This document shows, piece after piece, positions 10,739 to 24,386 of a stretch of 64,000 nt of DNA (position 1 is the first letter of the stretch; the number at the start of each line of letters is the position of its first letter). The stretch is from an uncultured Bacteroidales bacterium (lineage in GTDB: Bacteria; Bacteroidota; Bacteroidia; Bacteroidales; FEN-979). The position numbers and the translations under genes were made by a program. Below the pieces are notes generated by a model. It was not told where the DNA came from. It did not search any database and worked only from the letters and a program-made list of their open reading frames with translations. The DNA lies in the NCBI GenBank assembly GCA_903913885.1, contig CAIWMX010000040.1, forward strand, positions 2,636 through 66,635, in the 5' to 3' direction.

Positions 10739-10772
10739 TTTTTAATTTTTAATTTTAAATTTTTAATTTTTC
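10739..10772. repeat. AT-only 7-bp tandem array (ttaattt/taatttt) overlapping the purL stop
   Basis: ttttaatttttaattttaaatttttaattttt. The last purL codons (..EKLKI*) are read from this array. Confidence 0.8.
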
Positions 10773-13700
10773 CCTGATCCATTCCCGGGCGTTTACGAAC
10801 GCAGTTATCCAGGGAGTTACTTCGTCGGAGTGACGTTCACCGGGATAGTGGGGCCATTGCCAGGGCAGGACGGAATCTTCGAGGTGGGGCATGATGGCGA
10901 GGTGGCGGCCGTCGGCGGATGCGATGCAGGCGGCGTCGAACTGGGAGCCATTGGGGTTGCCGGGATAGCCGTGGTAGCTGAATTTTGCCGGAATATGGTA
11001 GTTGTGTTCCTCGTCGGGGAAGTTGAATTTTCCCTCGCCATGGGCGACCCAGATACCCAGTTTTGAGCCTGCCAGCGATTTCAGCATCACCGAGTTGTTT
11101 TCCATCACGTCGAGGCCGACGAAGGTGCATTCATATTTGTGGGAGTCGTTCCACGACATCCAGGGGTGCTTTTGGTGTTCAGGATAGATCAGGCCGAGGG
11201 CGACCATCAGCTGGCAGCCGTTGCACACGCCCAGGCTGAGGGTATCGTCGCGTTTGTAGAAGTTGTCGAGCGCCAGCCTGGCCTTGTCATTGTAAAGGAA
11301 TGCACCGGCCCAGCCTTTGGCCGAACCCAGCACGTCGGAGTTGGAGAAACCGCCAACGAAGGCGATCATGTTGACATCTTCGAGGTTTTCGCGTCCGGCG
11401 ATCAGGTCGGTCATGTGTACGTCCTTCACGTCGAAACCTGCAAGGTATAGCGCCCATGCCATGTCACGGTCGCGGTTCACGCCTTTTTCACGGATGATGG
11501 CAGCTTTCACGCCCGAAGGTTTCCTGCGTTTTGGATTGGTTCCGAACTGTCCGAAAGTTCCTTGAAAATGATCCGGAAATAAAAATTTCAGCGGTTGCTG
11601 CCTGTAGTTATTGTACCGTTCCAGCGCCAGTTTCTCACCCGACTGTTTCCGGTCGAAGAGATAAGATGTTTTGAACCATGTATCGCGCAGGGCATCGATG
11701 TCGAATAGATATTCCTGTTCTGCGTATTTAATTTTGACAGACCGGTTTTTGGTTATTTTTCCGATTGGGAAAACATCAAAATCAATAAAATCCGATTTTT
11801 TATTTTTAACTTTAAAGTTTACCGGGATTTCGCTACCTCGCCACCTCGCTACTTCGCTAACTCTTACTTGTACCACCACTCCCGGCTTCTCGCTGAACAG
11901 CACCCTGACGGGGTCCCCCACCCTGTCAGGGTCCCCCACCCTGTCAGGGTCCCCCACCCTGTCAGGGTCTCCCACCCTGTCAGGGTCCCCCACCCTGACG
12001 GGGTCCAGGTTATCCAGTTCCAGTGCGAGCCCGGTACCCGGAGTCGAGAATGTCATCTCGAGCAGCGTGGTGATCAAGCCCCCGGCAGCCACATCATGGC
12101 CTGCCAGAATGGCGCCCCGGCTGACAAGGTCCTGGAGGAATTCAAAAACGGCGGCAAAATAAGAGGCATCGGCCACATCGGGCACCTGATCTCCCAGCTG
12201 GCTGATGGACTGGGCAAAACTACTTCCGCCCAACTCAAAATCACACGTTGAAAAAGGAATGTATACCAGTACAGAATCCTCGTCCGGCACAAGGCACGGA
12301 CTCACCACCTTCTTCACATCCGACACCTCGCCAACGGCAGAAATGATCACCGTTCCCGGCGAATAAACAATTTTCCCGTCAGGGTATTTCTGGGTCATCG
12401 ACAGCGAATCCTTCCCAGTGGGAATGTTGATCCCCAGGGCGATGGCAAAATCGCTCACTGACTTCACGGCAGTATACAACCGGGCGTCTTCCCCGGGGTT
12501 CCTACAGGGCCACATCCAGTTGGCGCTCAGCGAAACGCCAGACAGACCGTGGGTAAGCGGCGCCCAGACCAGGTTCGACAACGCCCTTGCAATGGATAAG
12601 CGTGAACCGGCCGCGGGATCGATCAACCCCGCTACAGGCGCATGTCCCAGGGAAGTGGCAATGCCCTTTAGCCCCTGGTAGTCGAGCGCCGTAACGCCCA
12701 CGTTGTTCAGCGGGAGCTGGATGGCGCCGCACGTCTGCTGTTTGGCGATCTTCCCGCTTACGGCCCGGTCGACTTTGTTGGTCAGCCAATCCTTGCAGGC
12801 AACGGCTTCGAGCTGGAGAATCTGGTCAAGGTATTCAGAGACAAGGGTTTGATCGTATGCGAGTGACAAGTGACATGTGACATGTGACAAGTCAACCATG
12901 ATGGTTTTAGGCGGTTTTCCGAAGAAGTCGGCCAGTTTAAGGTCGATGGGATGTACCCCTTCCTTGTGATCTTCGAACACCAGCTGGTGATCGCCGGTGG
13001 TTTTTCCGACAAGATACATGGGTGCCCGCTCCCGTTCGGCGATCCCGCGCATCAGCGCGACATCGACATCGGCCAGGATCAGCCCCATGCGCTCCTGCGA
13101 TTCATTGCTCACGATCTCCTTTGCCGACAAAGTCGGATCTCCGATGGGCAGGCTGTCGATGTTTATGGTCCCGCCGGTTGCTTCCACCAGCTCCGACAAG
13201 GCATTGAGATGGCCGCCGGCTCCGTGGTCGTGGATGGAGACAATGGGGTTCTGCTCCATCTCCGTCATAGCCCTGATGGCGTTGAACACCCGCTTCTGCA
13301 TCTCGGGATTGGACCGTTGCACCGCGTTGAGTTCGATGGCATTGGCAAATTCGCCGGTAGCCACCGACGAAACGGCGCCGCCGCCCATCCCGATGCGGTA
13401 GTTGTCGCCCCCCAGCACCACGATCTGCTGTCCGGCTGCAGGTTCTTCCTTCAGGCTGTCGTGTTGTTTGGCGAACCCGATGCCTCCTGCCTGCATGATC
13501 ACCTTGTCGTACCCGTAAACCCGGTCCCCGGCGGCATGTTCGAAGGTAAGCAGCGATCCGCAGATCAGCGCCTGGCCGAACTTGTTGCCGAAATCGCTGG
13601 CGCCGTTGGAGGCCTTGATCAGGATCTCCTCCGGGGTCTTGTAGAGCCAGGGACGCGCTTCGACGCTTTTTTCCCACGAACGGGCGCCTTCGGTACGCGG

Positions 13701-14612
13701 GTATGAGGTCATGTAAACGGCCGTGCCGGCCATGGGAATGCTCCCCTTCCCTCCTGCCATGCGGTCGCGGATCTCGCCGCCGCTGCCGGTGGCTGCCCCG
13801 TTGAAGGGTTCTACGGTGGTCGGGAAATTATGGGTTTCCGCCTTCAGCGAGATGACGGAGTGAATGTCGCTGATCACGAAATAATCGGCCACATCCTGGC
13901 GCACGGGTGCGAACTGCTCGATGTCGGGCCCGAGGATGAAGGCGACGTTGTCCTTGTATGCCGAGACCAGGAAATCGGGATGTTCTTTGGCCGTTTTTTT
14001 GATCATGGCAAAGAGCGAATCATCCATCTCCTTCCCGTCGATGATGAAAGTGCCGTTGAAGATCTTATGCCGGCAATGTTCCGAATTAACCTGCGAAAAG
14101 CCAAACACCTCGCTGTCGGTGAGCCCCCGGCCAAGCTTGTGGCTCAACCCGATGAGGTATTCAATCTCCTCCCCGCTCAGCGCCAGCCCCTGCTGACTGT
14201 TATATCCTGCAATATCCTCAATAAACTGCACCGGCTCCGGATCATGCAGAATATGAAAAATCTCCTGGTCCAGCACCTCATACACATGCTGCAGCATCGG
14301 GTCAAACGGCTGCCTGTCCCCCTCAATTGTAAATCCTAAATCGTCAATCGTAGATCGAAAATCGTAAATCGAAAATTCCTCAATCCTTTTAATCCCGCCG
14401 ATTCCCATATTCTGCGTAATCTCCACCGCATTCGTGCTCCATGGTGTGACCATTTCACGGCGCGGGCCGATAAAGGTTCCCTGTAAAACAGGTTCGGCGA
14501 TGCATACCGCCTCGCCGAACAACCAAACCAGTTTCTGAACATCCTGCCCGCTGAGCCCCTGGCTGCTTTCAACAGCATAGTAACTTTCGGGATTTTTGAA
14601 AAATGTTATCAT
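10755..14612 (-). CDS. purL: phosphoribosylformylglycinamidine synthase, single-chain large type
   Basis: 1285-aa ORF with the N-terminal PurS-like region, two AIR-synthase-like repeats (ETHNFPTTVEPFNGAATGSGGEIRD, DHGAGGHLNALSE) and a C-terminal class-I glutamine amidotransferase (GVCNGCQ, HGEG). Confidence 0.97.
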   Translation of the reverse strand: MITFFKNPESYYAVESSQGLSGQDVQKLVWLFGEAVCIAEPVLQGTFIGPRREMVTPWSTNAVEITQNMGIGGIKRIEEFSIYDFRSTIDDLGFTIEGDRQPFDPMLQHVYEVLDQEIFHILHDPEPVQFIEDIAGYNSQQGLALSGEEIEYLIGLSHKLGRGLTDSEVFGFSQVNSEHCRHKIFNGTFIIDGKEMDDSLFAMIKKTAKEHPDFLVSAYKDNVAFILGPDIEQFAPVRQDVADYFVISDIHSVISLKAETHNFPTTVEPFNGAATGSGGEIRDRMAGGKGSIPMAGTAVYMTSYPRTEGARSWEKSVEARPWLYKTPEEILIKASNGASDFGNKFGQALICGSLLTFEHAAGDRVYGYDKVIMQAGGIGFAKQHDSLKEEPAAGQQIVVLGGDNYRIGMGGGAVSSVATGEFANAIELNAVQRSNPEMQKRVFNAIRAMTEMEQNPIVSIHDHGAGGHLNALSELVEATGGTINIDSLPIGDPTLSAKEIVSNESQERMGLILADVDVALMRGIAERERAPMYLVGKTTGDHQLVFEDHKEGVHPIDLKLADFFGKPPKTIMVDLSHVTCHLSLAYDQTLVSEYLDQILQLEAVACKDWLTNKVDRAVSGKIAKQQTCGAIQLPLNNVGVTALDYQGLKGIATSLGHAPVAGLIDPAAGSRLSIARALSNLVWAPLTHGLSGVSLSANWMWPCRNPGEDARLYTAVKSVSDFAIALGINIPTGKDSLSMTQKYPDGKIVYSPGTVIISAVGEVSDVKKVVSPCLVPDEDSVLVYIPFSTCDFELGGSSFAQSISQLGDQVPDVADASYFAAVFEFLQDLVSRGAILAGHDVAAGGLITTLLEMTFSTPGTGLALELDNLDPVRVGDPDRVGDPDRVGDPDRVGDPDRVGDPVRVLFSEKPGVVVQVRVSEVARWRGSEIPVNFKVKNKKSDFIDFDVFPIGKITKNRSVKIKYAEQEYLFDIDALRDTWFKTSYLFDRKQSGEKLALERYNNYRQQPLKFLFPDHFQGTFGQFGTNPKRRKPSGVKAAIIREKGVNRDRDMAWALYLAGFDVKDVHMTDLIAGRENLEDVNMIAFVGGFSNSDVLGSAKGWAGAFLYNDKARLALDNFYKRDDTLSLGVCNGCQLMVALGLIYPEHQKHPWMSWNDSHKYECTFVGLDVMENNSVMLKSLAGSKLGIWVAHGEGKFNFPDEEHNYHIPAKFSYHGYPGNPNGSQFDAACIASADGRHLAIMPHLEDSVLPWQWPHYPGERHSDEVTPWITAFVNAREWIREKLKI
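11831..11864. repeat. 8-bp tandem array inside the purL coding sequence
   Basis: cgctacctcg ccacctcg ctacttcg ctaactc, translated in purL as ..VSEVARWRGSE... It shares 15 nt (11827-11841) with the reverse complement of 10634-10648. Confidence 0.8.
11902..12006. repeat. 18-bp tandem array (approx 5.8 units) inside the purL coding sequence
   Basis: accctgtcagggtccccc repeated. Read in purL as DPVRVG-(DPDRVG)x4-DPVRV. Confidence 0.95.
12863..12891. repeat. 7-bp tandem array (gtgacaa/gtgacat x4) inside the purL coding sequence
   Basis: gtgacaagtgacatgtgacatgtgacaag, read in purL as ..LSHVTCHLSLA.. Confidence 0.8.
14330..14378. repeat. degenerate 7-bp tandem array (taaatcg-like x7) inside the purL 5' coding region
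   Basis: taaatcc taaatcg tcaatcg tagatcg aaaatcg taaatcg aaaattc, read in purL as ..YDFRSTIDDLGFT.. Confidence 0.7.
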
Positions 14613-14699
14613 AAGTTAACGGTCAAAGGTCTGAAAAAAGGAAAAAAGGCAATACGCAACAGACATTAGGCATTAGTCAGAAACTAAAAAGGTGCCCCT

Positions 14700-14766
14700 C
14701 ATTGTCTGCATTGTTTGCATTGTCTGCATTGTCTGCATTGTCTGCATTGCTTGCATTGTTTGCATT
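14700..14766. repeat. 9-bp tandem array (cattgtctg/cattgtttg, 7 units) between the trxB stop and the purL start
   Basis: Direct reading. Two unit variants alternate. The array ends 7 nt from the trxB stop codon. Confidence 0.92.
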
Positions 14767-14772
14767 CATTTA

Positions 14773-15858: not shown

Positions 15859-15932
15859 CGGGGTGTGGCGCAGTTGGCTAGCGTACTTGCATGGGGTGCA
15901 AGGGGTCGGAAGTTCGAGTCTTCTCACCCCGA
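15859..15932 (+). tRNA. tRNA-Pro (anticodon GGG), CCA not encoded
   Basis: Hand-folded cloverleaf. Acceptor CGGGGTG/CACCCCG, D stem GCGC/GCGT, anticodon stem CTTGC/GCAAG with loop AT-GGG-GT (U33, G37). 5-nt variable loop, T arm GGAAG-TTCGAGT-CTTCT, discriminator A. 74 nt in total. Confidence 0.9.
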
Positions 15933-15941
15933 CTTGAAAAT

Positions 15942-15981
15942 AAACCACTTACAGAGATAACATCAAGTAAGTGGTTTTTTA
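15942..15981 (+). terminator. rho-independent terminator after tRNA-Pro
   Basis: Stem ccacttac (15945-15952) / gtaagtgg (15967-15974) followed by tttttt. Confidence 0.7.
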
Positions 15982-16064
15982 TTTGCATACAACTTCAATA
16001 TAACTTTTACCCTTTGATTTAACAGTAAGGAATTTTAGTATCGCCTTTCAAAGGTAAGCTCCGG

Positions 16065-16322
16065 CTACGAGCATCTTGCGCGCTTGATCAGGTTGTGCCA
16101 GTCGTGGAGTTGAAATCGATAATCAGTGTAGGAAAAAATGCCGAGTCCCTTGTTTGGATTGTCTCCGTAACATAAGATATCTGTGAGTTTTGGATCAAGC
16201 AGCCCGAATTTAAGTCGTTCAGGACATTCACACTCTTGGATGATGGCAATGTCAGGTTCAATCGCAAGACGGTGTGCCTTGCGGCGGAACGCCATGTTAC
16301 AGTTCCAGGTGATAAGCTTCAT
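16065..16322 (-). pseudogene. truncated endonuclease/exonuclease/phosphatase (EEP) family gene fragment
   Basis: The 85-aa ORF starts MKLITWNCNMAFRRKAHRLAIEPDIAIIQECE, the typical EEP N-terminus with catalytic N and E. It ends after about 75 conserved residues, whereas full-length family members are several-fold longer. Confidence 0.6.
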
Positions 16323-16404
16323 GCTTGCAGAAAATACAGCTAACTGTGTACGGATAAATAATAATCCAATGAATTAATGAGGGTATTATGACTGACATCC
16401 GACT

Positions 16405-17259
16405 TTAATCGATGTTCTTTAAAACCTTGTCAACATTTGTTATAAACGAAACCAAATATTTTGATATCATTTCTTGATCTGGTTGGGCAATATTCTGGAT
16501 GTCTTGACTTAATAATGGTGTTTTTAAAGTACCCCAAAGACTGTCATCGTATCTACCCCTGCCATCAACTAACTCTAACTTCGATTCAACTGCATGAGTT
16601 AATGCGTCAATATTTTGACTCAAATACTCATATTGTTTCCTCGTTATAAGACAAGTTAACCTTAAAAAATTTGATTTGCTGTTCCATATAAAACAGTCAT
16701 AATTAAGCTTAGGGGTTCTGAACACCACTTTCCCCTCCGCCCTTGAGAAATATATCTTTGCAGCTAATATGTCCCCAATCTCGGCACAGACAGTATCCTG
16801 CCATTTGACGTTGTTCTTAATGGGGGTAACGGTTTCACCTTTTGTGGGCTTGGTTTTATTAGGTTCTAAATACCGTTCATAATATTGCATCACATCAGCA
16901 TACTCTTCCTGGCTTTCGGTTTGGTAAGCAATGTCCAACGATTGACTATCAGAAGAATAGAGCAGATTCATTGAAGAAACTATCGCATAACGCTCATTGA
17001 TGTAAAGTTTTGTATGTAAGCCAGTTACCAAAACTGGATTATACCCTAATGATTTGACTTGCTCTAATGTGGTTTTCTGATCGGCTCGAATATAAAAATC
17101 CACAGGAATCTTCCGCTCCTTGAGATTATTAAAGCACTTTTGGATTTTCTTCCAGTTCGTGAAATCACAGTAAGGGGACACGATGATGACAAATTTATCT
17201 GCCTCATCTATCAATGTCATAATATCCCCAGAAATCTGGTTCGGCTTGATTAGCTTCAT
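16405..17259 (-). CDS. phospholipase D-family (Nuc/HKD) nuclease with uncharacterised C-terminal domain
   Basis: Single HKD-type motif HTKLYINERYAIVSSMN about 95 aa from the N-terminus, then about 170 aa with no recognisable motif. Start set at the ATG for MKLIKPNQ (17259) rather than the ORF-track start 17298. Confidence 0.7.
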   Translation of the reverse strand: MKLIKPNQISGDIMTLIDEADKFVIIVSPYCDFTNWKKIQKCFNNLKERKIPVDFYIRADQKTTLEQVKSLGYNPVLVTGLHTKLYINERYAIVSSMNLLYSSDSQSLDIAYQTESQEEYADVMQYYERYLEPNKTKPTKGETVTPIKNNVKWQDTVCAEIGDILAAKIYFSRAEGKVVFRTPKLNYDCFIWNSKSNFLRLTCLITRKQYEYLSQNIDALTHAVESKLELVDGRGRYDDSLWGTLKTPLLSQDIQNIAQPDQEMISKYLVSFITNVDKVLKNID

Positions 17260-17566
17260 AAAATAGGAACGGATAAAAGATTTTGTCAAAGGTATCAATA
17301 ACCTGAAAACCTTTGTGGAAATTACCGCCAGCTTCAGGAATCAATAATACTCCATACCGGGAATGTCTCAAAGCTGCTGTCCTTGATTGGACCGGAATAA
17401 TCAATGAAGGCATTTAATACCATACTAAACTTTGATATCTTTACACTGCCCTCAAAATGACTAAACTATTTCATACATGAGCTGCCAAAAATGAGTAAAA
17501 GAGAGACAAGCGTGAACATTGGAATACGCAAAACAAAAGTATTTATTACTGATAAAGTATATTAGT

Positions 17567-20203
17567 ATGCAGACACAATTTCAATATATCACTGATCTTG
17601 CCAGGCAATACAAGGAATATTCAGACCATCAGGATATTTTGTACCAGGCCGTTAATAACTTGCCGCAAAACATCATTGAAGATGTATTTAAGGAATACGG
17701 TGATCCGGAACGGGATTTTAAACCGGTTAACCTTGTGCGGGCGGAAGTTGCCCGCAGACTATTGCAAGGTGAGCCTGTTACTGAAGCACTTGTAAATGAA
17801 ATCAAAGAAAAAATAAGGATAAAGGACACTGCTTTTTTTAGCCATTACAATGAAAATTATCTTAAACAACTTACAGAATATGAGTTGTTTAAAAGGGATT
17901 TGTTTGCCAACTGGCAAAAACCATGGAGTATATTTCATACGTTTTTCTACAGGCTTGCATGGGGAAAGGAAAAAGAAACTGTTCAAACCTACCTGGAACA
18001 AATTGCCAGGGACCTATTGGTTCAACTTGATTTAAAGGATTACACGTTTCACAAAGTTGATTTCCAGGGGGCATCTAACTTCGGTAGTAGTCATTGCTGG
18101 ATCGCGTTATATCCCGTGACAAAAGAATCACATAAAGATAGTTATCAGTTTTTCCTAATGTTAAGTGCTGACCCGGAAGCAGGCATGGTTGCTGGTTTTT
18201 CGATCCGGGAGCCAAAGCCGAATAAATTAAAGAAAGTAAATTCTTATAATGAGTCACTGGAATATTTGAAAGAGCTAAAACATGAAATTGTCCAGCTGAA
18301 TAAGGAAAGCAGGAGCTATTTCAAGTTTGCCCCAGGCAGTCAGGCAAGCGAATGGAGGAAATTTCATGAGGAAGGTATTGCGGCAATAAGTTATAACAAT
18401 GTAAATCTGCAGGATCTAACACCCTTCAAATCACGAGAAGAAATAAATATTGCAGCCGGGTTGGAACCAGACAATTGGTCCAACAATACCTGGAACCTTT
18501 GGCTTTTTAAAAATGCCAATATTGGCGATGTGATTTTTGCCACAAAGGGGGTCAATACTTCCATTGGCATTGGAATCATCGAAGGCGGATACTATTATGA
18601 CGCATCAGAGAATGATTATCAGCACCGGCGGAAGATAAACTGGATAACCGATAAAGTATACCAGTATAAATCTGACACGTTAAAGACTTACAAAACACTG
18701 TTCCGGCCAGATACATTCAGTCCAACCAAGGTATGGGAATTTTTGCTTGGAGAATATGTCCGGTTATTCCCTGAGCTGGCTGACTTGTTTGAGAAACACA
18801 ACCTGAAATTCAAAACAACCTCGGCTGTGACCTCTACTGTTAATGAACCTGAAGAGGCATCAGATCCGGAAGCGGAAGAAAAAGAACCATTAAATTTCTG
18901 GTGGCTGAATGCCAATCCGAAAATCTGGCGAATCAGCGATAATAGCGAAGGGCAATGCCAATCCTATACAACACACAATGAAAAGGGGAATAAGCGCAGA
19001 ATCTATAAACACTTTGAAGAAGCCAGGCCGGGAGACCTGATCATCGGGTATGAAAGCACACCAACCAAGCAGATCAAAGCAATTTACGAAGTTACCAAAG
19101 GGATACATTTAGCAGAAGAAGGAGAAGAGATAGAATTTCAGTTAGTTGAAAAGCTTGAAATTCCAGTTCATTGGAACGACTTGAAAAACAATCCGGCCCT
19201 TCAGGACTGCGAGGTCTTTATTAACAATCAGGGGAGTCTTTTTAAACTCACCGAGCCGGAGTTTGATATCATTCGTGAGATTATTGATAACAAGAATATC
19301 ATCACCGAAATACTGTTGCAAAAAAGCAATATCAGGCAATACCGGTTTGCTGAAGATGCGGACAAACCCTTTATCAGCGAAACTGACTTTCTCCAAACCG
19401 TTGCACTCCTCAAACGGAAAAAGAACATTATCCTTCAGGGCCCGCCGGGGGTGGGGAAGACCTTCATTGCCCGTAAAATTGCCTATGAGATAATGCAGGA
19501 GGTGAACGACGTAAACATTGAGATGGTACAGTTTCACCAATCATACAGCTACGAAGATTTTATCCAGGGATTGCGTCCCACTCAAAAAGGGGGTTTTGAG
19601 CTGAAAGACGGCATCTTTTATTCATTTTGTCAGAAAGCCCTGGCACACCCTGATCGGCCATTCTTTTTTATCATTGATGAAATAAACAGGGGTAATCTAA
19701 GTAAGATTTTTGGGGAGTTGATGATGTTGATGGAGGCTGATAAGCGGCAGGAAAAATTTGCCCTGAAACTGACCTATGCAGAGGATGAAGAGGATCGTTT
19801 TTATGTGCCGGAAAACCTTTACATCATCGGCACCATGAACACGGCCGACCGTTCCCTGGCCATTGTGGACTATGCCCTTCGGCGTCGGTTCTCCTTCGTA
19901 ACCCTTCAACCAGACTATGGGGAAAATTTTCGTTCGTTCCTTACATCCAGGGGGCTTTCTGAAGCTATGACAGAACATATTTGTGCCTCCATCAGGAACG
20001 TTAACAACAAAATAAAGGATGATCCGAATCTTGGCGATGGGTTTCAGATTGGACACAGCTATTTTTGCACCTTCAAAACCGGAGAAGATGAACGAATATG
20101 GTGGAACGAAATTCTTGGGTTTGAGCTGAAACCCCTGCTGGAGGAAATTTGGTTTGATGACGCGAAAAGCGTTGATGAGACCTTCAACTTACTCTCCAGG
20201 TAG
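17567..20203 (+). CDS. mcrB: McrB-family AAA+ GTPase restriction subunit with extended multi-domain N-terminus
   Basis: The C-terminal 270 aa carry Walker A LQGPPGVGKTF, FFFIIDEINRGNLSKIFGELMMLME and IIGTMNTADRSLAIVDYALRRRFSF. From memory these are near-identical to E. coli McrB signature blocks. An ATG at 17567 is preferred over the TTG at 17519. Confidence 0.92.
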   Translation: MQTQFQYITDLARQYKEYSDHQDILYQAVNNLPQNIIEDVFKEYGDPERDFKPVNLVRAEVARRLLQGEPVTEALVNEIKEKIRIKDTAFFSHYNENYLKQLTEYELFKRDLFANWQKPWSIFHTFFYRLAWGKEKETVQTYLEQIARDLLVQLDLKDYTFHKVDFQGASNFGSSHCWIALYPVTKESHKDSYQFFLMLSADPEAGMVAGFSIREPKPNKLKKVNSYNESLEYLKELKHEIVQLNKESRSYFKFAPGSQASEWRKFHEEGIAAISYNNVNLQDLTPFKSREEINIAAGLEPDNWSNNTWNLWLFKNANIGDVIFATKGVNTSIGIGIIEGGYYYDASENDYQHRRKINWITDKVYQYKSDTLKTYKTLFRPDTFSPTKVWEFLLGEYVRLFPELADLFEKHNLKFKTTSAVTSTVNEPEEASDPEAEEKEPLNFWWLNANPKIWRISDNSEGQCQSYTTHNEKGNKRRIYKHFEEARPGDLIIGYESTPTKQIKAIYEVTKGIHLAEEGEEIEFQLVEKLEIPVHWNDLKNNPALQDCEVFINNQGSLFKLTEPEFDIIREIIDNKNIITEILLQKSNIRQYRFAEDADKPFISETDFLQTVALLKRKKNIILQGPPGVGKTFIARKIAYEIMQEVNDVNIEMVQFHQSYSYEDFIQGLRPTQKGGFELKDGIFYSFCQKALAHPDRPFFFIIDEINRGNLSKIFGELMMLMEADKRQEKFALKLTYAEDEEDRFYVPENLYIIGTMNTADRSLAIVDYALRRRFSFVTLQPDYGENFRSFLTSRGLSEAMTEHICASIRNVNNKIKDDPNLGDGFQIGHSYFCTFKTGEDERIWWNEILGFELKPLLEEIWFDDAKSVDETFNLLSR

Positions 20204-20206
20204 ACC

Positions 20207-21238
20207 ATGCAGATCCCTATCGAAAATATCTATTACCTGCTTTGCTACGCATGGAACAAGCTCGATGAGAAGGAGCGCGTAAACGTTTCCATAGATGACA
20301 AGACCGAACTCCTTGACCTGTTTGCCAAAATCCTGATCAATGCCACACGGTCCTTGCTGAAACGAGGGATTGACAAGAACTACATCGATCATACCGAAGA
20401 ACTGGCCGGGGTAAAGGGGAAACTCCAACTCAGCCAGACCCTGAAACGCAATTTACTCTTCAAGCAACGAACCATCTGCACCTTCGACCATTTTTCATCA
20501 AACATCCTTTCCAATAGGATCCTGGTGACAACCATCTACAGGCTGACGCGTACCAAAGATCTTGATAAAAAGTTAAAGACCGACCTCGTCGCCTTGCAGA
20601 GAATGCTGTCACACATTCAGCAGATTGAATTGACCGTAAACCTTTTCAAACAAATCCGGCTCAACAGGAATAATCGGTTTTATGGCTACATCATGAATGT
20701 ATGTCAGATTATCCTCGAAAACACACTTCCTACAGAGAAACCTGGTGTTTACAAATTCTCAGATTTTACCCGCGATGACCGCAAGATGAACCAGCTCTTT
20801 GAAGCGTTTATACGAAATTTTTACCGCATTGAACAGAAGAGGTTTCCTGCCGTGAAAAAAGAGACCATCCTATGGAAATTCGAAATCGAAGATACGGTAA
20901 GTCTTCATTATCTGCCACGAATGGAAACCGATATAACTCTGGAAAATGACAAGGAAAAGATCATCATCGATGCCAAGTTCTACAGGGAAACCATGGTTTT
21001 AAATTATAATAAAGAGAAGATAAAATCGGCCAACTTATACCAGCTGTTCAGTTACTTGTTAAATCAGGAGGATGGTACATCAAAAACACAGCAGGCGACC
21101 GGTATTTTACTTTATCCAACGATTGAAAATGAATACAACTTTCAGTTTCGATTTCAGCAACATCTAATTCAAATACGGACCATTAACCTAAATTCAAATT
21201 GGAGAAATATTTCAAAAACATTGTTGCAGATAATTTAA
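20207..21238 (+). CDS. mcrC: McrC-family restriction endonuclease subunit
   Basis: Starts 3 nt after the mcrB stop. N-terminus IENIYYLLCYAWNKL, and a C-terminal PD-(D/E)xK-like TDITLE...IIIDAKFY. Confidence 0.88.
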   Translation: MQIPIENIYYLLCYAWNKLDEKERVNVSIDDKTELLDLFAKILINATRSLLKRGIDKNYIDHTEELAGVKGKLQLSQTLKRNLLFKQRTICTFDHFSSNILSNRILVTTIYRLTRTKDLDKKLKTDLVALQRMLSHIQQIELTVNLFKQIRLNRNNRFYGYIMNVCQIILENTLPTEKPGVYKFSDFTRDDRKMNQLFEAFIRNFYRIEQKRFPAVKKETILWKFEIEDTVSLHYLPRMETDITLENDKEKIIIDAKFYRETMVLNYNKEKIKSANLYQLFSYLLNQEDGTSKTQQATGILLYPTIENEYNFQFRFQQHLIQIRTINLNSNWRNISKTLLQII

Positions 21239-21798
21239 ATCGTTGATAAGCATTATAGTAAATGATATTTTGCTGTTACCAATTAACCTGAAACCGTCTC
21301 AATCAGTTAAATTTTCATTTAATAAGATTTTATATGTTATGGTATAGTTCCATTTAACCATAATGAAAAATGTTTAACGACCACTATAATCTGTTTTGAC
21401 GTGTTATGTTTTTTATGAATTTGGATATAATGAAGTTTTAATAGTTGGACGATGGCCTTATCCTTCAGAATCAATAGATGCTCTTTCTTCACCATAACTA
21501 TGATTCAGAAATTATTATATTTTTACGAAGTATTTAGTGCCATACCAGGAAGTGACTTAAATTTGATTTTTCTGAAAGAAAAAAAACTTCCACAAGAAAC
21601 TTAGGAAATCGAGGACCATAGGATAAATTCAATTACTGGATTCTGGTTTTTGAAAATTGAACTGTATAGTTAAAAGACAATAAGATCAGTTCTTAAAGGT
21701 CAAAAAATAATTGTAAAAATTCGCTCTTCTGGAGTTGGTATCCAAAAGGCAATCGATTTTTTATACAAAAAAAATCGCAACCAATTTGATAAGAAACT

Positions 21799-22572
21799 AT
21801 GAAAGATGGACAACGACTTTGGACAAGAGAAGAACTGATCCTCGCTATAAATTTGTATTGTAAACTGCCATTTGGTAAACTTCACAGAACCAATCAGGAG
21901 ATACTAAAATTATCTCAGTTAATAGGCAGGACAGCAAGTTCCGTAACATACAAATTGGTTAATTTCGCAAGTTTAGACCCGAGTTTAAAAGCTCGGGGAA
22001 TTAAAGGTGCCTCAAATGCGAGTAAATTAGATAAGGAAATTTGGCATGAGTTTTATAACAATTGGGAGATTTTGCCATATGAAAGTGAAAAACTTAAAGC
22101 CTTTAAATACCACACATCAATTGAAAAAGAGTGTTTGATTGATGAAAACGAATTACCCAGAGAAGGGAAAGAGCGTGAACAAATTGTTAAAGCCCGGGTT
22201 AATCAATATTTTTTCAGACAGAGTATTCTTGCTTCATATAATTTCACTTGCTGTATCACCGGAATCAAGCAATCTGAACTCTTAATTGCCAGCCATATCA
22301 GACCTTGGGGATTGGATGAAAAAAACCGATTGAATCCAAGAAATGGAATTGCAATCAATGCACTTCATGATAAGGCTTTTGAAAACGGACTTTTAACAAT
22401 AACACCAGATTTTCAAATTAATATTTCCTCCATTTTGCTTAAACAAAATAATAACGAGATCATAAATAACTATTTTGTCAAATACCATGGTAGTAAAATG
22501 ACATTGCCTTCCCGATTTCTACCAGATACTGAATTCTTACATTATCATAATCTGGAACGATTTAAACCATAA
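21799..22572 (+). CDS. HNH endonuclease (HNH_2-type putative restriction endonuclease)
   Basis: 257 aa. C-terminal CCITG...LIASHIRPW...NGIAINALHDKAFENGLLTI matches the HNH_2 pattern (H-N-H with upstream Cys pair). The N-terminal approx 100 aa is helical and HTH-like. Confidence 0.75.
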   Translation: MKDGQRLWTREELILAINLYCKLPFGKLHRTNQEILKLSQLIGRTASSVTYKLVNFASLDPSLKARGIKGASNASKLDKEIWHEFYNNWEILPYESEKLKAFKYHTSIEKECLIDENELPREGKEREQIVKARVNQYFFRQSILASYNFTCCITGIKQSELLIASHIRPWGLDEKNRLNPRNGIAINALHDKAFENGLLTITPDFQINISSILLKQNNNEIINNYFVKYHGSKMTLPSRFLPDTEFLHYHNLERFKP

Positions 22573-22694
22573 TTCAGTAATTAAACATAATCCTATTTAA
22601 CCACTTATTAGAACCGTTTGATTGAAATATTGTAAAAGCCGACCTTTTTATCGCCCCGTAAGCATTAATTGAAGTTATTGCTATAGAAAGTTGC

Positions 22695-22702
22695 TATTTT
22701 TG
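22695..22702 (+). promoter_or_regulatory. Bacteroidetes-type -7 box
   Basis: tatttttg lies 14 nt upstream of the ATG at 22716. Confidence 0.4.
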
Positions 22703-22715
22703 TTTGATATCAACA

Positions 22716-23618
22716 ATGGTTATGGAAGACCAAATAAGACTTGCCGCTTTTAATTGGCTTAGAAATCAATCCGAAATTTATGAAGATGTTCTTCCACGGA
22801 GAATCCTGGAGTCGGGTTTCGAATTTCAAGGGGAGCGAGTAACGTTAATTGGGGCATCTGGCATTTGGAAACCACGACAATTTAAGAGCAGACCAATTTC
22901 AATTACAACAATATTGAATGGTCCATACCCGGATAAGATGTCGGATGGCTTCCTTTCATACAAGTATCGTGGAACCGATCCTAACCATAGGGACAATGTT
23001 GGGCTGAGGTTAGCGATGGAAACAAAAACACCATTGATTTACTTCGTCAATCTTTCACCAAGCAAGTATATGGCAAATTTCCCGGCCTATATTATCAATG
23101 AAAATCGTGCATTACATGAATTTACTGTTGCGCTGGATGAAGAAAAATACATTGGGGTTCCGATTGAAACGAACCAGGTAAACGAGCCTGCGGAGTTTTA
23201 TCGAAGGAAGTATATAACCACCTTAGTTGAGCAAAGAGCCCATCAACATTCATTTCGTTTACGGGTTTTCGCTGCGTACAAGTCGCAATGTTGTCTTTGT
23301 AAACTAAATCATACAGAACTACTTGACGCAGCACATATAATCCCGGATAATGAACCTAAAGGTGACCCAATCGTTCCCAATGGATTAACCTTATGTAAAA
23401 TTCATCATTCGGCGTTTGATGTTAATATCCTTGGAATTTCACCGGATTACAATATTCATATTCGTGAAGACATTCTTCAGGAGATTGATGGCCCGATGTT
23501 GAAACATGGCATCCAGTCTCTTGATAAACATAAAATAATCTTACCTGCAAGAAAACAGGACTATCCAGATAAGGAGCGTCTTGAAATGCGATTTGATAAA
23601 TTTCGAAAGGTCGGTTAA
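22716..23618 (+). CDS. HNH endonuclease with N-terminal SRA/PUA-like putative modified-base reader
   Basis: C-terminal CCLC...LLDAAHIIP...NGLTLCKIHHSAFD (HNH_2). The N-terminal GASGIWKP..ISI..GPYPDK..DGFLSYKYRGTDPNHRDNVGLRLAMETKTPLIYF is colinear with SRA-domain landmarks (my own pattern match). ATG at 22716 is preferred over TTG at 22704. Confidence 0.7.
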   Translation: MVMEDQIRLAAFNWLRNQSEIYEDVLPRRILESGFEFQGERVTLIGASGIWKPRQFKSRPISITTILNGPYPDKMSDGFLSYKYRGTDPNHRDNVGLRLAMETKTPLIYFVNLSPSKYMANFPAYIINENRALHEFTVALDEEKYIGVPIETNQVNEPAEFYRRKYITTLVEQRAHQHSFRLRVFAAYKSQCCLCKLNHTELLDAAHIIPDNEPKGDPIVPNGLTLCKIHHSAFDVNILGISPDYNIHIREDILQEIDGPMLKHGIQSLDKHKIILPARKQDYPDKERLEMRFDKFRKVG

Positions 23619-23641
23619 TATTCAGATTCCCCCCATTTTCC

Positions 23642-23649
23642 TATTTTTG
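23642..23649 (+). promoter_or_regulatory. Bacteroidetes-type -7 box
   Basis: tatttttg lies 21 nt upstream of the ATG at 23670. Confidence 0.45.
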
Positions 23650-23669
23650 CCTCACCCAAACCCACCCCC

Positions 23670-24386
23670 ATGTCAAAACACGAGGAGAAAGAGATCACCG
23701 GCGACGAGATCAAAAAGGAGTTCCAGGTTGAACGGATGATCCTGTTCAGCGACGCGGTATTCGCCATCGTCATCACCCTGATGGCCATCGAGATCAGGCT
23801 GCCCGAAACGGGCGGCAAGGAGGGCGCGCTGCCGCTGGCGCAGGCCCTGGAGCACCTGCTGCCCGTCATCGTTTCCTACTGCATCAGCTTTGTGTTTATC
23901 GGGGCCATCTGGTACCAGCACCTGCGGATGTTCAGCCTGCTGAAGGATTACGACCGCGGGTTGATCGTGCGCAACCTGGTGCTGCTCTTCTTCGTAAGCC
24001 TCTTCCCCTTCAGCTCCTCCGTGATCACGCACGAACAGGGAGGCATGACCGCCATGTTCTTCTACCTGGGTATCATCCTGCTTTCCGTCGCCGCACAATA
24101 TTTTTTGTACCGCTACATCCTGGTGGAGCGTCCCGGGCTCCGCATCAGCACCGGGATCGCGAAACATATGCAGGAACTGCGGAAACAAAAGATATCCCTG
24201 GTCAGCTTCGCCTCCACCTACGTGCTGATCACCCTCACCTCGCTGCTGATCACCAAACCGGAACTGAAACCGATGTCCGTCATGTGGATGGCCGTGTTCC
24301 CCTTCGTATACCGCTGGATGGCCGCGAAAAAGGCAAAACATGCCAAAGCCGGTGGGCCGGAAAATGGCGGGAAGCAAGCTGAATAA
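23670..24386 (+). CDS. TMEM175/DUF1211 family potassium channel
   Basis: Signature ERMILFSDAVFAIVITLMAIEIRLP near the N-terminus, about 6 hydrophobic helices, 238 aa. Confidence 0.82.
   Translation: MSKHEEKEITGDEIKKEFQVERMILFSDAVFAIVITLMAIEIRLPETGGKEGALPLAQALEHLLPVIVSYCISFVFIGAIWYQHLRMFSLLKDYDRGLIVRNLVLLFFVSLFPFSSSVITHEQGGMTAMFFYLGIILLSVAAQYFLYRYILVERPGLRISTGIAKHMQELRKQKISLVSFASTYVLITLTSLLITKPELKPMSVMWMAVFPFVYRWMAAKKAKHAKAGGPENGGKQAE

Follow-up and report, generated by a model that had tools for sequence, protein, structure and literature searches.

Few modification-dependent restriction systems are as abundant as McrBC, whose targets are set by the N-terminal domains of the motor protein McrB. 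What, then, does an McrB read when ~585 amino acids (aa) precede its motor? Such a protein is encoded on a 64,000-nucleotide stretch of DNA from an uncultured Bacteroidales bacterium (GenBank assembly GCA_903913885.1, contig CAIWMX010000040.1, positions 2,636 to 66,635 of the forward strand; hereafter the window, within which positions are numbered). A reading made from the sequence alone (the sequence-only reading) had proposed that its N-terminus consists of three tandem reader modules, the first resembling the DUF3578-type N-domain of McrB. We found that the three-way division stands and that the second and third modules (M2 and M3) are of the EVE/YTH type, but that the assignment of the first module (M1) to DUF3578 does not. 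The locus is in all likelihood an ordinary McrBC restriction system directed against modified DNA, with a motor protein that carries three N-terminal modules.

The open reading frame (ORF) extends over 17519..20203 on the forward strand, and translation from the ATG at 17567 yields an 878-aa McrB. We chose this start because more than 100 homologues of 872-880 aa have N-termini that align with its residue 1; a TTG start at 17519, which would give 894 aa, was rejected since the homologues begin at the ATG. The NCBIfam McrB model NF008457 aligned to aa 586-867 only, with a score of 323.6 bits, confirming that the motor is confined to the C-terminal part, roughly the last 290 aa. The whole-protein equivalog cut-off of this model (637) was not reached because the N-terminus differs from that of Escherichia coli McrB. 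Pfam AAA_5 matched aa 620-775 (1.4e-25), and the Walker A, Walker B and NxxD motifs are all present in this AAA_5-type core, placing the protein among the McrB GTPases. The mcrC gene begins 4 bp past the mcrB stop codon and provides the adjacent partner that marks an McrBC system. Its product exceeded the cut-off of the NF007277 equivalog model (342.1 bits versus 338), matched Pfam McrBC (1.3e-36) and retains an intact nuclease motif (...ETDITL...IIIDAKFY, with D-x-K at aa 265-267). In precomputed annotation, a second new Pfam family, PF28529, falls somewhere past McrB aa 575 (window 19300-20200); a 575-aa fragment lacks it while keeping EVE and PF28530, a family discussed below.

We examined the module borders with a search of aa 1-445 against 1.84 billion cluster representatives, which returned 1638 matches at E ≤ 1e-3. 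The matched stretches begin or end at ~aa 247 and ~aa 420, with many proteins covering only aa 1-247 and many others only aa 247-420, and these clean breaks indicate that M1 and M2 are independent mobile domains. Nearly all of their partner proteins contain a McrB-type Walker A motif and AAA_5. Local hidden Markov models for M1, M2, the EVE module and the GTPase, run on the best 150 representatives, distinguished more than 25 architectures: M1-GTPase (12 representatives), X-M2-X-GTPase (10), M1-M2-GTPase (9), M1-M2-EVE-GTPase (8, this protein included) and M2-GTPase (3), with M2-EVE-GTPase, X-M2-M2-EVE-GTPase and others also present. The triple architecture recurs in ~110 orthologue clusters of 865-885 aa; the sequence-only reading had left it open whether this arrangement had been described, and our searches show it to be common in databases rather than unique. 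Relatives are named only 'McrB', 'MoxR-like ATPase' or 'hypothetical' in their clusters, and our literature search found no experimental characterization of the triple architecture.

Individual relatives carry further arrangements. One protein (P0253) has two M2 copies and an EVE domain ahead of the GTPase. Outside the tally, EVE precedes M2 in P0162, and in P0125 M1-M2 leads into an Mrr_N-like segment (judged by eye) in the place of EVE and then the GTPase; other relatives, of ~990 aa, have an added Mrr_N, and P0152 has M1 followed by a separate, true DUF3578 in one chain.

M3 is an EVE domain over its full length, as its layout had suggested: it passed the PF01878 gathering cut-off of 23 bits both within the whole protein (32.7 bits) and when excised (36.9 bits), covering profile positions 1-144 of 145. 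For M2, an AlphaFold2 (AF2) model built on a 37-sequence alignment reached a predicted local distance difference test score (pLDDT) of 90.8 and is ordered to ~aa 410. Foldseek comparison of this model with the PDB gave 33 matches at E ≤ 1e-3, at probability 1.0, all of them EVE domains, YTH domains or the EVE-HNH enzyme VcaM4I (6yex), the last among the top six; they include the EVE-type proteins PH1033 and MJECL36 and the YTH domains of YTHDC1, YTHDF2 and Mmi1. Profile alignment of M2 with M3 by hhalign gave 54% probability (E 1.3e-4) over a helix-GD-strand core, and BLASTP of the two pieces returned only the overlap included in both. In one relative (P0173), M2 is fused directly to a NOV_C/DUF3883 domain without a GTPase. 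We take NOV_C/DUF3883 to be a PD-(D/E)xK-type nuclease domain, and P0173 would therefore have the layout of a single-chain reader-nuclease enzyme. Together, the modeled fold with its Foldseek matches, the alignment to M3 and the NOV_C fusion identify M2, at the level of its predicted structure, as an EVE/YTH-like module of the PUA superfamily. The PUA-like beta-barrel that the sequence-only reading had perceived here is thus borne out, although its end lies not at 18660 but at ~aa 414 (18808).

M2 has the signature YWKYSPG..W, SNxxWNLxLFKxAxIGDVVFA and LFRPDTFSPT, and W263, F314, Y342, W359, F379 and F384 are conserved aromatic positions in it. The N-domain of COG4127 may be a relative of M2. 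Searches of the local Pfam, NCBIfam and PDB sequence sets with M2 yielded nothing beyond profile noise (parathion hydrolase, E 0.95). In precomputed annotation, fragments that reach M2 (341 aa or more) carry the family PF28530, and those limited to M1 (up to 294 aa) are assigned to none in Pfam, which identifies PF28530 with M2; our literature search found nothing on either PF28530 or PF28529. The N-domain of PDC-S02, a PADLOC candidate defense protein, also matches M2, with positions 9-121 of five models aligned to aa 257-364 (best E 5e-10). This likeness is at the domain level only, as PDC-S02 proteins are ~310-346 aa long and have no McrB GTPase. Our literature search for PDC-S02 returned, by titles and abstracts, general defense surveys only.

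All three modules are under purifying selection. Across 109 orthologues of 865-885 aa, mean identity is 65-68% for M1, 67% for M2, 85% for M3 and 83% for the GTPase, as against 37% for the linker between M2 and M3 (aa 415-442). Because all three modules lie far above the linker, none looks decayed. The M1-M2 block nonetheless changes at roughly double the rate of the M3-GTPase block, a mosaic pattern that suggests either faster evolution of M1-M2 or a recombination seam near the linker. Of 401 genomes drawn from across the phylum, one, the genome of this protein itself, matched an M1 profile, and this sporadic distribution fits carriage on mobile defense islands.

M1 is the only novel element of the protein: it is uncharacterized, and neither a curated family nor a solved structural relative exists for it. 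Its AF2 model is confident (pLDDT 95.2, predicted template modeling score 0.90) and two-lobed. The N-terminal lobe (M1a) consists of helices between aa 2 and 128 (pLDDT >89), with conserved N30, Y44, P53 and N55 and an invariant R58 in a PVNLLR motif. The C-terminal lobe (M1b) runs from a helix (131-153) through five strands (159-164, 177-183, 193-199, 204-209 and 220-223) to a second helix (227-247), with the signature of the family, VDFxGxxNFGSxxCWIALYP...SHxxAYQLF, on strands 1-3. Among 26 diverse members, R58, F166, G173, G210 and N245 are invariant, and W178 and Q194 are kept in at least 90%. The strings quoted by the sequence-only reading are all in place, with VDFQGASNFGSSHCWIALYP at aa 164-183 (18056-18115), YFKFAPG in M2 at aa 251 (18317) and NFWWLNANPKIW at the start of M3 at aa 443 (18893).

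No Foldseek match to M1 reached E ≤ 1e-3 in the PDB or in BFVD, where the nearest entries were small uncharacterized phage proteins (best E 0.08). Pfam, its newest precomputed set included, has no family for M1; aa 1-442 matched nothing in our local copies of Pfam and NCBIfam, and a sequence search with aa 1-611 against all PDB chains gave no match. One weak profile match (E 0.0038) pairs aa 23-110 with TcaR, a regulator of the MarR type; it covers a K/E-rich helical stretch and was not reproduced by Foldseek, and at most it is a lead, on which nothing here relies. The M1 profile search otherwise returned a designed helical bundle, which we count as noise. In the searches made here, M1 was met essentially only at the N-terminus of McrB-type GTPases. 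M1 represents a large domain family, and it may, though less probably than not, be a domain of a new type that recognizes DNA or modified bases, in which the helical lobe has no counterpart and the alpha/beta half is possibly an extremely divergent offshoot of McrB-N/DUF1054 with a W178/Y193 pocket.

A more specific reading of the same lobe is that aa 131-247 form a very divergent member of the DUF3578/McrB-N and DUF1054 class, with the base flipped into a pocket of W178, Y193 and L197. The McrB-N structure is a five-strand antiparallel sheet with alpha1 and alpha3 on its convex side and a base pocket of W49, Y64, L68 and Y117 (PMC3424535). M1b repeats its order of helix, five strands and helix, alpha2 apart, and the best compact Foldseek matches of M1 are the DUF1054 structures 3mqz (probability 0.82, root-mean-square deviation 3.5 over 91 columns) and 2a8e, both reported structural neighbors of McrB-N (PMC3424535). 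In an hhalign register of insignificant score, W178, Y193 and L197 pair with W49, Y64 and L68. However, five strands in a meander flanked by two helices form a simple arrangement that recurs among folds, M1 has neither the alpha2 helix nor an evident equivalent of Y117, and Y193 is not invariant, with H, F, I, V or D in its place in part of the family. The McrB-N structure 3ssc was missing from the best 50 Foldseek matches of M1, none of which was significant. The DUF3578 profile PF12102 matched neither M1 nor 26 of its relatives at E ≤ 10 and had no match in the six-frame translation of the genome itself. By hhalign, M1 aligned to E. coli McrB-N (from NC_000913) at <1% probability, to a 4-sequence DUF3578 alignment at 0.3-0.6% and to a 27-sequence DUF2461 alignment insignificantly; a control alignment of DUF3578 with DUF2461 was also negative, so sequence tests are weak for this structural class. 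The presence of M1 and a separate DUF3578 in one chain (P0152) likewise speaks against equating the two. The DUF3578-type assignment therefore fails every sequence test and is left with a hint at the level of the fold, and we regard even the divergent form of it as doubtful.

Another alternative is that M1 does not read DNA at all and is a regulatory, assembly or sensor domain, acting for instance in autoinhibition, oligomerization or the sensing of a phage protein, so that only M2 and M3 read. More than half of M1 is a helical bundle, the domain has no significant similarity to a known DNA- or base-binding fold, and its place is nearly always at the very N-terminus, in many cases ahead of recognized readers such as M2, EVE, Mrr_N or DUF3578. 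Against this, the 12 M1-GTPase proteins among the best 150 representatives have nothing else before the motor, and the position ahead of the motor holds a DNA-binding domain in the McrB family. The order of elements that M1b shares with McrB-N, its best compact Foldseek matches to McrB-N neighbors, and the aromatic and basic positions among the conserved surface residues of M1 (R58, W116 and W178) also point away from a purely regulatory role, which we judge rather unlikely.

CoCoNuTs, a branch of McrBC, have an NxD GTPase signature, long coiled coils and tandem nucleases. That the target here is modified RNA rather than DNA, as proposed for these YTH/EVE-bearing relatives, is very improbable: modified RNA is indeed a ligand of EVE and YTH domains in many settings, and readers of N6-methyladenosine RNA are among the top structural matches of M2, but this GTPase has the canonical NxxD signature (NTAD), no coiled coil appears in the two modeled modules or the Pfam scan, McrC passes the E. 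coli-type equivalog model with its D-x-K retained, and EVE-McrB and EVE-HNH enzymes are handled as DNA restriction enzymes in the literature.

Returning to the three-reader McrBC system that we favor, several observations weigh against it. The TM-scores of M2 against EVE and YTH structures are moderate (0.45 query-normalized, up to 0.60 target-normalized), and aa 249-442 gave no Pfam match at E ≤ 10, that is, none to EVE (PF01878). For M1, neither structure nor sequence comparison gave a significant relative whose function is known, and what argues for its role as a reader is its position in the protein together with the M1-GTPase architectures. Of the two PUA modules, one may be a spacer with no reading activity. 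Our literature search found no binding or restriction data for this McrB or for any member of the M1 or M2 families.

By analogy with E. coli McrBC, this NxxD-type AAA+ GTPase would assemble as a hexamer that translocates DNA, with activation by McrC, a PD-(D/E)xK nuclease. Its N-terminus would act as a string of three separately folding and separately mobile target-recognition cassettes, with a flexible acidic linker between M2 and M3. In the manner of solved EVE and YTH domains, M2 and M3 would each take up a flipped-out modified base in an aromatic pocket, and the two-lobed M1 would supply a third DNA contact; M1 alone may suffice as a reader, because many homologues are M1-GTPase only. We infer that M1 binds DNA and that the modules read modifications, whether additively or in combination. 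A hexamer would display up to 18 reader modules, and the outcome would be a wider range of modifications, higher avidity or both, or else a requirement for combinations of marks; it is plausible that three readers would broaden specificity. GTP-driven translocation would then lead to cleavage of invading modified DNA by McrC.

Comparison with known systems places the protein on familiar ground. Like E. coli K-12 EcoKMcrBC (PDB 3SSC; PMC3424535), the locus has the order mcrB-mcrC, an NxxD AAA+ GTPase, an McrC above the equivalog cut-off and an N-terminal target-recognition region ahead of the motor. The E. coli protein, however, has a single 160-aa DUF3578 ('ADAM') reader in place of the ~585 aa and three modules found here, none of which matches DUF3578 and of which M1b shares at most the order of elements with McrB-N. 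The protein also resembles EVE-McrB fusions, in which, as here, EVE lies directly upstream of the McrB GTPase (PMC7641849; census in Bell et al., 2024, PMC11090510). EVE-McrB is reported as the commonest defense-related EVE architecture, abundant in Bacteroidetes and frequently furnished with additional domains (Bell et al., 2020, PMC7641849). M1, M2 and this string of modules are not described in the text consulted of these two reports; the present analysis gives such domains borders and modeled folds and counts how they are shuffled.

A PUA-superfamily reader on an McrB motor is also known from Thermococcus gammatolerans McrB, which is reported to have a YTH-like N-domain (Hosford, Bui and Chappie, 2020, PMC6970917, as cited in PMC7641849). 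That protein is archaeal with one reader, whereas the present one has two tandem PUA-type modules and M1; the Thermococcus structure was not among the best 50 Foldseek matches of M2. Among the EVE-HNH and PUA-nuclease modification-dependent restriction enzymes (PMC7897488, PMC6765204), VcaM4I resembles M2 structurally, and the M2-NOV_C fusion of P0173 resembles these enzymes in layout. They are, however, single-chain reader-nucleases without a motor, while in the present locus a GTPase carries the readers and cleavage falls to a separate protein, McrC. The CoCoNuT branch differs by the signature and coiled-coil features already given.

The coordinates of the mcrB locus and its neighbors are collected in Table 1. 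The genes lie in a low-GC islet (guanine-plus-cytosine fraction 0.37-0.43 versus ~0.52; window 15859-24000) that begins right after a tRNA-Pro gene. Downstream of mcrC, the two HNH_2 proteins both match the NCBIfam model 'phosphorothioated DNA-binding restriction endonuclease' at 54-60 bits, below its cut-off of 180, and are unlike each other in their N-terminal domain. No methyltransferase turned up among the islet ORFs scanned. The islet is a typical stack of modification-dependent nucleases.

Table 1. Coordinates of the mcrB locus, its domains and motifs, and the flanking islet genes (window positions)
Feature	Position	Strand	Residues	Evidence or remark
tRNA-Pro	15859-15933			
85-aa ORF (MKLITWNCNMAFRRK...)	16065-16322	-		no Pfam match
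PLD-like gene	16405-17298	-		
mcrB, M1-M2-linker-EVE-GTPase	17567..20203	+	878 aa + stop	ORF, translation, NCBIfam McrB
Module 1a, all-helical subdomain	17567..17956	+	aa 1-130	AF2, alignment
Module 1b, helix, five-strand antiparallel meander, helix	17957..18307	+	aa 131-247	AF2, alignment
Module 2, EVE/YTH-like PUA-superfamily domain (predicted fold), PF28530	18314..18808	+	aa 250-414	AF2, Foldseek, PADLOC, hhalign
Linker, acidic, poorly conserved	18809..18892	+	aa 415-442	pLDDT ~57, highest column entropy of any segment
Module 3, EVE domain	18893..19279	+	aa 443-571	Pfam PF01878
McrB AAA+ GTPase core	19322..20167	+	aa 586-867	NCBIfam NF008457, AAA_5
Walker A, GPPGVGKT	19439-19462	+	aa 625-632	motif scan
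Walker B, FFIIDEINR		+	aa 700-708	motif scan
NxxD signature, MNTADRS (NTAD)	19835-19855	+	aa 757-763	motif scan
mcrC	20207..21238	+	343 aa	NCBIfam NF007277, Pfam McrBC
HNH_2 endonuclease, first	21799-22572			PADLOC HNH PDLC04132, 6.6e-92
HNH_2 endonuclease, second	22704-23618			adjacent to first

Two repeats were seen upstream of the islet. The product of purL (10755-14612, reverse strand) contains a translated tandem repeat, RVGDPD, in at least five copies, and an ORF at 14692 (14692-14770) opens with repeated IVC units, the translation of an array of DNA 9-mers between trxB and purL.

The protein fits the known picture of EVE-McrB with additional domains and so belongs to an already known kind; as a whole it will not surprise a specialist, and M1 is the part of experimental interest. 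What is new lies in defining the module borders, assigning a fold to M2, counting the shuffled architectures and recognizing M1 as a confidently modeled, conserved domain. McrB motors carry the cassettes in varying combinations, as if these were interchangeable parts, and confident models are now available for M1 and M2, both of which were without a family in local libraries. PF28530 can be annotated as an EVE/YTH-like reader on the strength of the modeled M2 fold. M1 is a good target for structural and binding work and possibly a source of reagents for the detection of DNA modifications. If M1 is indeed a recognition domain, Type IV restriction enzymes would include a whole specificity class, the M1-GTPase proteins, that has so far escaped recognition, and the protein described here would join three types of reader on one motor.

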